From Candidatus Woesearchaeota archaeon (lineage in GTDB: Archaea > Nanobdellota > Nanobdellia > Woesearchaeales > UBA119): DNA of 64,000 nucleotides. This document shows positions 11,299-52,888 of this stretch, piece by piece (within the stretch, counting starts at the first letter, position 1; each line of letters begins with the position of its first letter). Under the pieces are notes generated by a model. That model did not search any database. It had not been told where the DNA came from and worked only from the letters and a program-made list of their open reading frames with translations. A program made the translations under genes and the position numbers. The stretch is from assembly GCA_030156615.1 (NCBI GenBank), contig JASGME010000004.1, forward strand, positions 2,546-66,545. Reading direction: 5' to 3'.

Positions 11299-11610
11299 TA
11301 AAGCAAAAGGAAAGCTAATGAAAAAACTCATGAGCTTGAATATAAAAACAAAATTTTAAAGAGTCTTGAAATTAATATTTAATTTTAAAAAAATCTCATC
11401 TTAAGAAAAATATTCTAAAAAAAGTTGTTAAATTGTGAATAGTTTATTATATACATTAGAAATTCTCCCTAAAATGGTTAAAACTCTCTTTTGAAAAAAT
11501 TTATTTCAAATAAAAATTCATCATGAACTCGAATATAAAAAAAGATTGAGGATAAAAAAATAAATATGTTTATAAAGAATAAAAACAAAGAGTATCGAAG
11601 AGGCGACAAT

Positions 11611-11820
11611 ATGCCAACTAAAAAAACTACTAAAGGAACAAAAAAAGGAGCAGCCAAGAAAACTGCAAAGAAGGCTACAACATCTAAAAAAGCAAAACCA
11701 AAAGCAACAAAACCCAAATCAACAACAGGGAAAAAGGTAGCTTCAAAGACTAAGGCTGTTGCTAAAAAAGGCACTACTAAGAAAGCAAAAGCCACTAAAA
11801 AAACAGTTAAGAAGAAATAG
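11611..11820 (+). CDS. lysine/alanine/threonine-rich basic protein (histone H1-tail-like / KAP repeats)
   Basis: About 70 aa, roughly 40% Lys, with repeated KK(A/T)xKK units. I chose start MPTKK preceded by a purine-rich stretch. The antisense ORF 11478-11795 in the track is judged spurious. Confidence 0.45.
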   Translation: MPTKKTTKGTKKGAAKKTAKKATTSKKAKPKATKPKSTTGKKVASKTKAVAKKGTTKKAKATKKTVKKK

Positions 11821-48383: not shown

Positions 48384-49589
48384 TCATCTAACTATATATT
48401 TTATCTCGGAATACTTATTATGTTCTTCCTTTCCTCTGACAATATGATGTTCAGAACATCTCGTAGTATAAGCCTCTTGAGCTCCTTGTTGTATCTGAGG
48501 TTCATCGTACGATGAGGCTAACCTTTCCCCATCAATGTTAATGAACCTCTGCGTCTCTGTAGCAATATTACTACATCCCGGATATGAGCAGAATCCTGTT
48601 CTGTTTATAATATCATCAGCAAGGCATAAAATTCTCCCTATGTCTTTATTGAAAGGCTCTCCCTTATAATCCCTTTTTAAAGCACTTATTATAAAACTGT
48701 ACCCTTTTGAATAGTATTTCTTTATGACATCGCTTATTCCGGGAATGAATTGGGCTTCATCTATAACAATGTTCTTTTTAAATGGTTCATCCTTAAGGAT
48801 ATCTTCAAGTTCCTCTCCGTTTCTTATTACTCTGCAAGGCTCACTTCTCTGATTATGTGATGTTATCTCATCCTTTTTGTATCGTGTGTCAATATGTGAT
48901 TTAAAAATATCAAAATCATAAGAATCATCTTTTGGATGCTTGAATTTTAGCCATTTCAATTTATCAATTTCCTCAAGCAAACTCTCTGTTTTAGACGAAT
49001 ACATTGGCCCTACAATTGCTTTAACCCTCGGCCTTTTCCCATCTTTAAATCCAAAATATTCCTGCCTTGATACTGGCATGTATTCTCCATTCTTATTTAA
49101 ACTAAGGTCTGCCTCTTCACCAGACAATTGGCTACTCGCACTTTTCTTCACATAATTTTGAGCCAAAGTCATCAACTGATCCATAGGTCCAAATGGTTCA
49201 GCATCCGAATCTAAATTAAGTCCTCCTAAAGTAACAAAGCGCTTAGAATCCCTCAAAGCTTCAACCAGTTTAACAATATTATTATCATAAAAATTAGCTC
49301 CGTCAATGAAAATATACTTTGCTTCAGGATTTTTCTTTAATTCATCAAATATTTCATCTGCAGTTGTTGCTTCCTTCGCTGGGAAACTGTTGCCGCCAGC
49401 TGCATGAATCTCATTTTTATACATTTTGTCAGAAAGAGGGTGTTTAAAAACCTCAATCATATTATCATCAATATGACCTCCCCTGATTAAACTAAGAATT
49501 ATATTGACCAGTTCTGAGCTTTTTCCAGCCTTAACTGGTCCATAAACAAGATTAACATACAGGGGCCTTTGAAGAATTGCACTATTCAT
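48384..49589 (-). CDS. tdk: tandem thymidine-kinase (TK1-family) fusion: degenerate N-terminal TK-like domain plus complete C-terminal TK with zinc ribbon
   Basis: Domain 1 P-loop VYGPVKAGKSSEL and IFIDGANF; domain 2 P-loop IVGPMYSSKTESL, VIDEAQFI, zinc ribbon CSYPGC...C..H; no stop codon between the halves. Confidence 0.6.
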   Translation of the reverse strand: MNSAILQRPLYVNLVYGPVKAGKSSELVNIILSLIRGGHIDDNMIEVFKHPLSDKMYKNEIHAAGGNSFPAKEATTADEIFDELKKNPEAKYIFIDGANFYDNNIVKLVEALRDSKRFVTLGGLNLDSDAEPFGPMDQLMTLAQNYVKKSASSQLSGEEADLSLNKNGEYMPVSRQEYFGFKDGKRPRVKAIVGPMYSSKTESLLEEIDKLKWLKFKHPKDDSYDFDIFKSHIDTRYKKDEITSHNQRSEPCRVIRNGEELEDILKDEPFKKNIVIDEAQFIPGISDVIKKYYSKGYSFIISALKRDYKGEPFNKDIGRILCLADDIINRTGFCSYPGCSNIATETQRFINIDGERLASSYDEPQIQQGAQEAYTTRCSEHHIVRGKEEHNKYSEIKYIVR

Positions 49590-49640: not shown

Positions 49641-50735
49641 TTAATCCTTAGGTAGTTTTTTAATCTCTAAATAACCTTTATCAGTGAATATCTCAAATTC
49701 ATCATCTGAATTAAAGTTACATTCTTTAAAAATCTCTTTAGGAATCAAGAGATTATTACCTTTAAAATTTAAAGATGAGACAAAACTAGTTTTCTGATTG
49801 GCTTTAACAGGAGTTATCCCCAATTCTTTAAATAACTTCGATGTTGCAGTTCCATTTTTATTTTCCATAAAATTCTTACTTTCCTCAAACAAGAATCGAG
49901 CAATCTCATCAGCAACATCAATCTTTGTTGCCCTAGTTATTCCTTGAAGGCCTGGGCTAAGATTACCTTCAATAGCAACAGGTCCCTTTGCTCCATAAAG
50001 AATATCTATGGCGCATATCGAGGCACCCATAGATTTTGCAGCCTTTACTGCTACTTCCTTGGTCTTATCATCAATCAAGACAGGCTCACCTTCTCCTCCA
50101 GCATGAATATTTGCCCTTTTTTCTCCTATCTTCGCTCTTCTCATCATTGCTGCGACCACCTTCTTGCCTGCAACAATTACCCTCAAATCAGAATTTCCAC
50201 TCTCAACATATTCTTGGACTAAAAAAGGTTGTCTCAAAGCAGACAGGGTATCAAGAACAGAAGATGCAGATGCATAAGAATCAGCATAAAGCACTCCTTT
50301 CCCCTGCGTCCCATTAGGGATTTTAATTATTATAGGATAATTAGCATTTTTCTCTAAAAATTCTTTTGCCTTTTTTACATTTGAAAACAAATAACTTCTA
50401 GGTATGGGAACTTTTCCCAAAGCAAAAGCAATCATGTTCAGTATTTTATCATGACCAATCGTGAATCCTCTGCTTGTTATAGGTGTATAACATTCATCTT
50501 CAATTGCAGCAGCAATAGATTCTAATAGATTTGCATACCTAAAAGAACCTCTGATATAAACACAATCGTACCTCTCTAAAGCTTTTCCCTTATGCATAAT
50601 CGTCATCTTTCCCTGTTCAAGGCATTCCTCTATGTCTTTAAGATTAAAACTATCTACAGAATCAAAATAGTTTTTCATTGCAGCTTCAATCCATCTTGAG
50701 CTCAAACTCTGTTGACTTATTATACATCCTTTCAT
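49641..50735 (-). CDS. RimK-family ATP-grasp ligase (alpha-L-glutamate ligase-like) with about 70-aa C-terminal extension
   Basis: IIIKIPNGTQGKGV, LVQEYVESGNSDLRVIVAGKKVVAAMMRRAKIGEKRANIHAGGEGE, ICAIDIL all match the RimK pattern. Confidence 0.72.
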   Translation of the reverse strand: MKGCIISQQSLSSRWIEAAMKNYFDSVDSFNLKDIEECLEQGKMTIMHKGKALERYDCVYIRGSFRYANLLESIAAAIEDECYTPITSRGFTIGHDKILNMIAFALGKVPIPRSYLFSNVKKAKEFLEKNANYPIIIKIPNGTQGKGVLYADSYASASSVLDTLSALRQPFLVQEYVESGNSDLRVIVAGKKVVAAMMRRAKIGEKRANIHAGGEGEPVLIDDKTKEVAVKAAKSMGASICAIDILYGAKGPVAIEGNLSPGLQGITRATKIDVADEIARFLFEESKNFMENKNGTATSKLFKELGITPVKANQKTSFVSSLNFKGNNLLIPKEIFKECNFNSDDEFEIFTDKGYLEIKKLPKD

Positions 50736-50812
50736 TTAAAAACCCCCTTATTTACTAATTAGTTTTTTAATTATTATTTTCAATTTATTTTATCTTTTAA
50801 TCTTCATTTATT

Positions 50813-51160
50813 TTACTTCTTATTCGGATTTATTAAGAATCCTAGCTTTTTAAGAGCATTTCTTCCTAAGAGTACAGGATAACTTAATTCAGACCTGTCT
50901 GCAAGGGAAGCGTTAACCAAAATCGTCTTATCTTTTACAGTTAATTTAACCTTTACATAAGGCCTTCTTTGCTTTCCATTTGCAGACTTAATAAGCTTAA
51001 CCTTATGGATTGGCCCCAATTCAAGCTCTCTAGCCAATTCATACGATACTGAACAGCTGGAAGCACCTGTATCAACCCTTGCTTTAACCTTCTTTGATTT
51101 ATTCTTGCCAGCTATCTTAGCAATACAAACAAATCCTATTTCGTTATCCTCTGTCATCAT
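50813..51160 (-). CDS. retropepsin-like aspartic peptidase (DUF785 / COG4067, RimK-associated)
   Basis: VDTGASS catalytic D-T/S-G-A motif; 115 aa; immediately upstream of the RimK-like gene, a known pairing. Confidence 0.55.
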   Translation of the reverse strand: MMTEDNEIGFVCIAKIAGKNKSKKVKARVDTGASSCSVSYELARELELGPIHKVKLIKSANGKQRRPYVKVKLTVKDKTILVNASLADRSELSYPVLLGRNALKKLGFLINPNKK

Positions 51161-51384
51161 CTATCCTTGATAATTTTTAATGCAGTCTTGATGTCTCCTT
51201 CTCTTAAAGTCTTATTCCCAGAAACCTTACTAATCTCAATAGCTTTTCTTGATATCTTTTTTGCATATTCCTCAATCCAATCTCTAAGCTCCTCAACAGC
51301 CTCTTTTGAGACTTCACTAATTTCATCGCTATAAAATTCCCTTTTCAAAGGACTAAGAGGGATTCTATCTCTATTCTTTGGCAT
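51157..51384 (-). CDS. archaeal histone-fold protein (HMf-like)
   Basis: IPLSPLKREF..ISEVSKEAVEELRDWIEEYAKKISRKAIEISKVSGNKTLREGDIKTALKII aligns with the HMfB pattern (LPIAP..R.......RVS.DA...L...LEE....I...A...A.HAGRKT.K.EDI.LA). Confidence 0.55.
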   Translation of the reverse strand: MPKNRDRIPLSPLKREFYSDEISEVSKEAVEELRDWIEEYAKKISRKAIEISKVSGNKTLREGDIKTALKIIKDR

Positions 51385-51418
51385 ATAGAACTAAAAAACA
51401 GATTAATTTATATAACTT

Positions 51419-52150
51419 TTGCTCCTCTTTTTATTTATGTCCAATGAGAATCAAAAGAAGCAACCAGTAGATAACGATGTTATTGATGAAATAATAAAAA
51501 TCTTGGAAAAATCAATATTGAAATACCAGCTTCCGATAGTCACCCAAATACGAATAAAGACAAACAAACCATTTGTTGTATTAATCTCAACAATGCTGAG
51601 CTTAAGAACAAAAGACAAGATAACAAAAGAATCTACAATGAGACTTTTAGAGTTGGGAGATTCCCCAGAAAAGCTTTTAAAATTCTCTCAAGAAGATATT
51701 GAAAAAGCAATATACCCAGTTGGATTTTATAAAACTAAAGCAAAGAATATCCTTAAAACATCTCAAATCCTTAAAGAAAAGTACAACGGAGAAGTTCCAA
51801 AAGATATGAATGGACTTCTTGAACTCCCTGGAGTAGGAAGAAAAACAGCAAACCTTGTATTAGGAGAAGCTTTTAACATTCCATCAATCTGTGTAGACAC
51901 ACATGTACATAGAATAAGCAACAGACTCGGTTATGTTTCAACATCTAACCCAAAGGAAACTGAGTTTGCTCTCCGTGAAAAACTTCCTCAGAAATATTGG
52001 ATAAGGTACAATACACTTCTAGTAACCCTTGGTCAAAATATATGTCTCCCAAGAAGTCCTCTTTGTTCTAAATGTCCAATAGAAAAATATTGCCCAAAAA
52101 TTGGTGTTAAAAAAGCAGATAACAAAAATTCCTCTCTATCTATCATCTAA
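51419..52150 (+). CDS. nth: endonuclease III (HhH-GPD DNA glycosylase, 4Fe-4S)
   Basis: LPGVGRKTANLVL HhH-GPD, catalytic K/D region, C-terminal CLPRSPLCSKCPIEKYC Fe-S cluster loop. Confidence 0.85.
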   Translation: MLLFLFMSNENQKKQPVDNDVIDEIIKILEKSILKYQLPIVTQIRIKTNKPFVVLISTMLSLRTKDKITKESTMRLLELGDSPEKLLKFSQEDIEKAIYPVGFYKTKAKNILKTSQILKEKYNGEVPKDMNGLLELPGVGRKTANLVLGEAFNIPSICVDTHVHRISNRLGYVSTSNPKETEFALREKLPQKYWIRYNTLLVTLGQNICLPRSPLCSKCPIEKYCPKIGVKKADNKNSSLSII

Positions 52151-52291: not shown

Positions 52292-52888
52292 ATGGGCACG
52301 CGAGTTAAATCAGGGACAATTATTGGAGAAACTAAGTTAAGCATAAAACACAAAAATACCCCTTTTGATATGAATGCACTTGCTGCCTTTATGCATGATT
52401 GGCTCCTTGAAGAAGGATTTCATGATGATACCGGCTCAGACGATTTCATTGAAACATATTACTGGCAGGAATCAACACAAAAGGGCAAAAATGTGTGGTT
52501 TTGGTGGCGAACATTTGCAGGCCCCGAGAAAACCCAATCAACTTATTTTGAATATCATCTTGATTTAGAATGCCAAATCTTAGGATTAATTGATGTTGAA
52601 ACCGTAGTCAATGATAAGAAACTTAAGCTCAATAATGGAGAAGTAAACATAAACATAAAAGGATATATGGTTTTTGATCCAAACGATCTCCTGAAGACGC
52701 ATCCTTTTATAAAAACAATTTATAACTTCTTTCCAAAATCATGGCTCCATAAAGAGATAAATTTGCACAAAAAAACATCAAAAAAGCTAACATCAGATTT
52801 TTATAATGCAATAAAGGCTCATTTAGAACACCGCACCTTATCAGAGCAATTCCCGAATTTTGCTCCAAATAGAGGAATTGAGCATTGA
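52292..52888 (+). CDS. hypothetical protein
   Basis: 198-aa ORF; Trp-rich segment; no motif. Confidence 0.35.
   Translation: MGTRVKSGTIIGETKLSIKHKNTPFDMNALAAFMHDWLLEEGFHDDTGSDDFIETYYWQESTQKGKNVWFWWRTFAGPEKTQSTYFEYHLDLECQILGLIDVETVVNDKKLKLNNGEVNINIKGYMVFDPNDLLKTHPFIKTIYNFFPKSWLHKEINLHKKTSKKLTSDFYNAIKAHLEHRTLSEQFPNFAPNRGIEH

Follow-up and report, generated by a model that had tools for sequence, protein, structure and literature searches.

We examined a 64,000-nt stretch of the genome of a Woesearchaeota (DPANN) archaeon (the window; GC content, ~32%; a tRNA with an intron is present) in which three genes follow one another on the minus strand: one for a 75-aa histone-fold protein (positions 51384-51157), one for a 115-aa retropepsin-like (RimB-like, PF05618/DUF785) aspartic peptidase (51160-50813), and one for a 364-aa RimK-family ligase (50735-49641). 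The database proteins nearest to those of the window carry the name Candidatus Woesearchaeota. An initial annotation had read these open reading frames (ORFs) as a possible archaeal chromatin-modification module, with the histone or another basic protein as the substrate for glutamylation or processing. Its coordinates were exact, and all three identities, including that of the histone, passed validation with hidden Markov models (HMMs). Our analysis favors another reading, to which we assign a probability of roughly 0.7: a RimB/RimK-type pair follows a histone gene that is specific to the lineage, with which it shares a promoter since one ancestral rearrangement, and the histone is not implicated as a substrate. 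The peptidase and the ligase form a conserved two-gene module of the Woesearchaeota/Nanoarchaeota; the histone adjoins this module in a single clade, and its adjacency looks like one historical rearrangement, a local accident of gene order.

The peptidase-RimK pair and its neighborhoods

The body of the ligase (residues 1 to 294; positions 49854-50735, minus strand) is a RimK-family ATP-grasp alpha-L-glutamate ligase, as recognized by PF08443 (E = 5e-42), by TIGR00768 rimK_fam (157.1 bits; cut-off, 143.4), and from an AlphaFold2 model of the protein (mean predicted local distance difference test score, 84.6). The Mg/ATP residues of the ATP-grasp fold were invariant in our alignment of the subfamily (A1). 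When the model was searched with Foldseek, the top 22 matches were all RimK structures, headed by 7qys and 7qyr from Pseudomonas and by 5zk6 (in complex with RpsF), 5zct, and 4iwx from E. coli, with which the archaeal ATP-grasp body superposes at a template modeling score of 0.89 and 28 to 30% identity. These comparisons also bear on whether the enzyme glutamylates a cofactor or an amino-acid carrier, as MptN, CofF, and LysX/ArgX do, and not a protein tail. The LysX/ArgX-LysW carrier system belongs to the same ATP-grasp subfamily (RimK/LysX), with a LysX/ArgX-type ligase that modifies a small protein at its C-terminal Glu; our ligase scored 117 bits against LysX_arch, 99 bits against MptN, and 76 bits against CofF, and ArgX/LysX structures were the second-best fold matches. 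However, these scores lie far under the curated cut-offs of the LysX, MptN, and CofF models (275 to 350 bits; 275.6 for LysX_arch), the bacterial RimK structures match better, the obligatory partner of the ligase is a RimB-family peptidase, and no LysW-like gene was seen beside the pair. Such biosynthetic pathways are, in general, scarce among DPANN archaea. The MptN, CofF, and LysX identities were rejected on the HMM cut-offs together with the structural ranking, and we regard a small-molecule ligase as highly improbable.

The 115-aa peptidase matched PF05618 with 43 bits (cut-off, 27) and also exceeded the cut-offs of PF13975 and PF13650. Its catalytic motif reads VDTGAS, and a D[TS]GA motif was found in 81 of the 83 DPANN copies of the peptidase.

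A homolog search with the ligase returned 998 matches, the best 120 of which were almost all ~360 aa long and ~50% identical over their full length. By scanning GTDB species representatives, we obtained 80 loci (L009 to L088). The pairing of RimK with DUF785, which the initial annotation had pointed out, turned out to be strongly conserved: the peptidase gene lies directly upstream of the RimK gene on the same strand in 79 of the 80 species-level loci, and the sole exception (L051) has merely 210 nt of upstream sequence. Among the 78 junctions measured, the two genes overlap in 34 and are separated by a gap of 30 nt or less in 23. The pair is also kept in more distant relatives, including an Aenigmarchaeota contig. 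These results indicate that peptidase and RimK are a conserved two-gene module of the Woesearchaeota/Nanoarchaeota. In an Aenigmarchaeota locus (L007:3146-4991), the peptidase gene precedes a tandem of RimK-like genes (288 and 332 aa), neither with the C-terminal extension described below.

Both gene families, paired in this way, have been described in bacteria. In the rimABK system of Pseudomonas, a poly-alpha-L-glutamate ligase and a retropepsin-like Glu-tail endopeptidase act on the ribosomal protein RpsF (PMC11957791, PMC7343187). The archaeal pair belongs to the same families (PF05618; PF08443/TIGR00768), is likewise adjacent in the order peptidase then ligase, and has the DTGA motif. It differs in that there is no RimA (EAL) gene, in that the ligase carries an additional AbrB/SpoVT-like C-terminal domain, and in that the peptidase is shorter, with a match that covers no more than the C-terminal half of the RimB profile. 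The host differs as well: bS6 is bacteria specific and absent from archaea. Literature searches on RimK in connection with archaeal histones, DPANN, DUF785, or lysine-tRNA ligase yielded nothing relevant beyond the bacterial RimABK papers. From the Pseudomonas enzymes we infer by analogy that the ligase would add alpha-linked Glu to the C terminus of an acceptor protein or make free poly-alpha-L-glutamate and that the peptidase, as a homodimer, would trim these Glu tails and perhaps stimulate the ligase.

The commonest upstream neighbor of the pair was lysine-tRNA ligase (LysRS), found within two genes in 28 of the 80 loci and almost always on the same strand. A class I enzyme (TIGR00467, 370 bits) occupied this slot in 16 loci (L013, L028, L034, L037, L040, L044, L057, L063, L068, and L073, with the others at the second upstream position), and a class II enzyme (NF001756, 660 bits) occupied it in 12 (L018, L024, L025, L029, L039, L045, L050, L069, L075, and L085, with the others again at the second position). 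The occurrence of two non-homologous LysRS classes in one slot is a stronger neighborhood signal than the histone; it could reflect non-orthologous replacement in situ or a functional connection with translation. Among specific alternatives to our reading, the most attractive, though one that we hold to be unlikely, is a translation-linked module, in which the pair would glutamylate and trim a component of the translation apparatus, much as S6 is modified by bacterial RimK, the LysRS neighbor would reflect that role, and the histone would be irrelevant. LysRS coupling is sometimes tight (4-nt overlaps with the peptidase gene in L045 and L085), class I- and class II-linked loci are interleaved over the RimK tree, and the nearest structural relatives of the ligase are the S6-modifying RimK enzymes. 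However, bS6 is absent from archaea, an acidic tail is not a consistent feature of the LysRS C termini, inherited synteny could explain the linkage, and the remaining 52 loci have no LysRS nearby, nor is there a LysRS gene in the 64-kb window. The LysRS neighborhood thus points weakly towards translation rather than chromatin.

In other lineages the slot upstream of the pair is filled by LysRS, NikR, Lrp-like, and other genes, and its coupling to the upstream gene there is equally tight (for example, to LysRS). One sub-lineage has the pair behind NikR (L049, L065, L070, L078, L080, L081, and L086); NikR is the immediate neighbor in five of these seven loci, ~24 to 40 nt away and on the same strand, and a divergent nickel/cobalt-transporter-like membrane protein is encoded upstream in five NikR loci and in L084. 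The LysRS, purA, and NikR neighbors provided no Glu-tailed or poly-Glu acceptor candidate.

An AbrB/SpoVT-type domain fused to the ligase

The RimK-family ligase of DPANN carries a fused domain of the AbrB/SpoVT type. This C-terminal domain (residues ~318 to 364; positions 49644-49784, minus strand) is kept throughout the DPANN RimK subfamily of ~360 aa (alignment A1), with the consensus LDFRGxRILLPxxITKxxKFxEKDExxIxxxKGKLxIKK, and it is absent from precomputed annotations. In the AlphaFold2 model, a disordered linker (residues 295 to 314) is followed by a beta-beta-alpha-beta-beta arrangement at residues 323 to 360. A profile of the domain searched against the PDB had AbrB, SpoVT, MazE, and PemI as its best matches (E, 0.1 to 0.6), and hhalign against AbrB/Abh/SpoVT/MazE, with manually entered template sequences, gave a probability of 94.1% (E = 1.2e-7). 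The Pfam model PF04014 scored 14.2 bits on the window copy, under its gathering score of 24.7, and matched 7 of 38 subfamily members at E below 1. With the swapped-hairpin domain of AbrB, SpoVT, and MazE, the last 45 residues of the ligase share the pattern G-x-R-[IV]-x-[IL]-P...D-x-[LV]-x-[IV] as well as the topology; its fusion to an enzyme sets it apart from the known domains, which are found in stand-alone regulators or antitoxins. Members of the histone-linked clade have N or K in place of the Arg that corresponds to R15 of AbrB (GNNLLIP, NGKLIIP). The domains would probably pair between subunits of a RimK oligomer and provide target binding.

The histone gene upstream of the pair

The 75-aa protein scored 39.7 bits against PF00808 (cut-off, 21.4) and 54.4 bits against NCBIfam NF043032 archaea_histone, barely over the cut-off of 50. 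We compared it with HMfA and HMfB, using the residue roles described for HMfB (DNA-anchoring R10 and R19, the R52-D59 salt bridge, and H49 in tetramerization; PMC6136690). The window histone shares the PF00808/NF043032 fold, the Arg equivalent to R10, the K-T of the RKT motif, and D59 with these proteins; it differs by its short basic N-terminal extension (MPKNRDR) and by the replacement of R19 with E, of R52 with N, and of H49 with V. In its clade relatives R19 is retained and position 52 is occupied by R or K; the tetramerization residue H49, which is needed for hypernucleosome-type assembly, is replaced by L in L002 and L009 and by N in L012. The histone also evolves faster than its neighbors (44% identity against 55 to 57% at the same distance) and has very few relatives. 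A word-indexed homolog search with the 75-aa protein matched only a 99% identical twin, and an exhaustive phmmer search found just three related clusters (E up to ~1e-10) among 1.84e9 representatives, two of them sub-lineages already seen and the third (P0133) 45% identical. Among five syntenic genes the histone gene is the fastest evolving, with 44% identity at the distance of L012 compared with 50 to 57% for the other four. This atypicality may leave a small opening for a specialized role of the protein, without being evidence for one.

To search the loci for histones, we combined HMfA, HMfB, and the histones of the clade into a profile that was run without iteration and with all filters off. 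An iterated HMM, which grew from 8 to 96 matches, was dropped as a case of profile drift, because a run of N in L011 had fused the histone and peptidase ORFs and so drew in the peptidase family. A histone gene was found upstream of the peptidase only in the window and its strain-level twins (L001 and L094 to L097), in L002 (identical to L003 and L010), L009, L011, and L012, and in four metagenome contigs from the same two sub-lineages (L089 to L092). This amounts to 4 species-level loci out of 80, in addition to the species of the window itself. In the other 76 there was no histone within ~6 kb of the pair and nothing better than E = 0.05. In the RimK tree, the loci with a linked histone fall into a single basal, monophyletic group and thus reflect one evolutionary event. 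The nearest histones from outside this clade have unrelated neighborhoods: the P0133 histone gene sits between eIF-1A and a GTPase, that of P0148 follows a TFS/RPB9-like gene, and that of P0138 stands alone, none with a peptidase or RimK gene nearby.

Within the clade, the histone gene is flanked on its other side by a divergent gene for endonuclease III (EndoIII; HhH-GPD; PF00730, E = 7e-24; positions 51437-52150, plus strand), which adjoins it in every member, including L011, L012, L090, and L091. Beside EndoIII, again in every member, lies a gene for a 198-aa protein without a Pfam match or an assigned function (52292-52888, plus strand), 50 to 60% identical across the clade. Downstream of RimK, the window has a gene for a 401-aa tandem thymidine-kinase protein (48384-49589, minus strand; PF00265 in two stretches; NF003296, 205 bits), which begins 51 nt after RimK on the same strand and is syntenic in L002 and L009, and a PD-(D/E)XK nuclease gene; in L011 and L012 this side is replaced by pilin-like genes. 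Because the upstream genes were kept while the downstream side changed, the histone is no more tightly linked to the peptidase than to EndoIII. The thymidine-kinase protein consists of two thymidine kinase-like halves, the N-terminal one more divergent, and measures 403 to 404 aa in L002 and L009.

The initial annotation had described the three genes as one translationally coupled string, which holds for the first junction and not for the second. The histone stop and the peptidase start overlap by 4 nt as ATGA, visible directly in ...AGATGATGACA...; in near-identical strains, the gene caller takes the second ATG, which yields a 1-nt TGATG overlap and a 114-aa peptidase, and by its sequence the junction is tightly coupled under either start codon. 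Between peptidase and RimK, however, there is an AT-rich spacer of 77 nt (50736-50812, minus strand), with a Shine-Dalgarno-like GGGGG at 50747-50743 that precedes the RimK ATG by 7 nt and a T5 run immediately ahead of that ATG. Among the relatives, the overlap between histone and peptidase gives way to spacers of 14 nt (L012 and L091), 23 nt (L090), 47 nt (L002), 50 nt (L089), and 56 nt (L009) that contain Shine-Dalgarno-like GGATGAT or GTGAAT. A T6 run in the L009 spacer or a T5 run in that of L012 could attenuate transcription. The L009 peptidase gene (L009:5615-5986, from a UBA119 relative) has an in-frame TGA (KEIK*ANG) where its relatives have TCA (Ser), either a sequencing error or the mark of a pseudogene, with histone and RimK intact.

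A motif resembling a B recognition element and TATA box (BRE/TATA), gCAAAA[A/G]TT[T/A]TATAAA, precedes the histone gene in all seven clade members examined, ~24 to 31 nt before the start codon of MPRNK/MPKNR. In the window it reads AAAAGTTATATAAA (51407-51420, minus strand) and is the one match in the 64 kb, with 0.06 expected. Its spacing has the geometry of a leaderless archaeal transcript, which suggests a promoter. The palindromic TATA core TTATATAA (51415-51408) is centered ~27 nt before the histone ATG and also lies ~26 nt from the ATG of the divergent EndoIII gene (51437), within the 52 nt that separate the two starts. This arrangement suggests that a single compact promoter serves two divergent, leaderless genes in both directions. 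The intergenic region of L012 measures 108 nt, so such promoter sharing would be specific to the window's lineage. We found no BRE/TATA-like element in the histone/peptidase spacers of the clade and no match to the clade motif in the 77-nt spacer, which may nevertheless hold an internal promoter. A scan for sigma-70 promoters and intrinsic terminators gave counts near the shuffled expectation, with a consensus that is not applicable to archaeal promoters.

Together, the 4-nt overlap, the conserved BRE/TATA-like element, and downstream spacers that carry only Shine-Dalgarno-like motifs make co-transcription from the histone promoter plausible, as the initial annotation had supposed, and from them we infer a clade-specific histone-peptidase-RimK operon, of which the thymidine-kinase gene is possibly the last member. 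We propose that a fast-evolving, lineage-specific histone-fold gene came to lie upstream of the module in the ancestor of a small clade and that its promoter probably drives histone, peptidase, and RimK, and perhaps thymidine kinase, as one transcript with a leaderless first gene.

Substrates and significance

If the histone were the acceptor, one would look for a suitable tail. The RimK enzymes that have been characterized elongate a tail ending in Glu, and the sole requirement of RimB is a run of ~5 or more contiguous Glu (PMC11957791). The histones of the clade end in ...IIKDR, ...IIKNK, ...IIKKD, or ...LRKKY, with no acidic run and no poly-Glu; with such a basic and variable C terminus, the histone lacks the features that RimK/RimB-type enzymes are known to recognize. 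The same difficulty meets the second substrate that had been put forward, a Lys-rich AKK-repeat protein encoded at 11566/11611-11820 (plus strand). The ORF exists (84 or 69 aa, depending on the start; Lys/Ala/Thr rich and of low complexity), but it ends in ...VKKK, unlike a Glu-terminated acceptor. This protein resembles H1/Hc1-like basic DNA-binding proteins, and a longer ORF antisense to its gene (11478-11795, minus strand) is probably spurious. A scan of the window ORFs for Glu-tailed acceptors found no run of at least five D or E residues in any protein; many end in D or E, and none has a Glu-rich tail that singles it out.

These observations leave little room for a chromatin-modification module, in which the histone-fold protein would be a substrate or partner, glutamylated by RimK, processed by the peptidase, or both. 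Such a module would sit well with the 4-nt overlap and the probable single transcript, with an order kept in five species-level lineages, with a histone subfamily that is rare and always beside the pair where its context is known, with the loss of H49 (and, in the window copy, of R19 and R52), and with a RimK C-terminal domain from a superfamily that often binds DNA. However, the arrangement arose once, and the order on which the idea depends, sought elsewhere as its main comparative test, was confined to a single monophyletic clade; the pair does without a histone in 76 of the 80 loci; the histone is linked equally to EndoIII; the C termini do not offer what RimK and RimB need; the overlap is replaced in relatives by spacers, one with a T6 run; and in L009 the peptidase reading frame is interrupted while histone and RimK are intact. 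We therefore consider it very unlikely that the histone is modified by the pair, and the proposal of a chromatin-modification module is unsupported. A related scenario, to which we likewise give little credence, is that a divergent histone was recruited into a RimB/RimK operon as a substrate or targeting partner, with the DPANN RimK tetramer tethered to DNA or chromatin via its AbrB-like domains; the target of poly-glutamylation and trimming would in that case be a chromatin protein.

Several points weigh against our own reading, that of a RimB/RimK-type pair behind a lineage-specific histone gene. The ligase reached 140.8 bits against the E. coli-type RimK equivalog NF007764 (cut-off, 331), and the peptidase reached 35 bits against the RimB equivalog NF052261 (cut-off, 200), over profile positions 75 to 138 only. 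Because these scores lie far under the equivalog cut-offs, profile comparison files the two proteins as RimK and RimB-like family members, not as orthologs of the S6-modifying system. The acceptor that the bacterial system would suggest, bS6, is absent from archaea, so the proposed mechanism stands by analogy only. Moreover, all recovered members of the window's histone subfamily sit in the three-gene arrangement, which has been retained down to 44% identity between histones; a clade-specific functional tie between the histone and the pair may thus exist.

What is new here, relative to the bacterial systems, is the archaeal setting without bS6, the fusion of an AbrB-type domain to the ligase, and the clade-specific putative operon with a histone. 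Were the histone glutamylated or processed after all, which is unlikely on the evidence, the locus would provide the first archaeal example of a writer/eraser-type system for histone modification whose substrate is encoded alongside it, an analogue of the writer/eraser pairs that modify histone tails. On our favored reading of a RimB/RimK-type module with an incidental histone neighbor, the significance lies in the module itself: RimB/RimK modules are near universal in a large DPANN radiation without bS6, which makes their acceptor a testable question. The AbrB-type domain of the ligase may be a targeting device, and the recurrent LysRS neighbor, drawn from two non-homologous classes, provides a lead towards a translation-related role.

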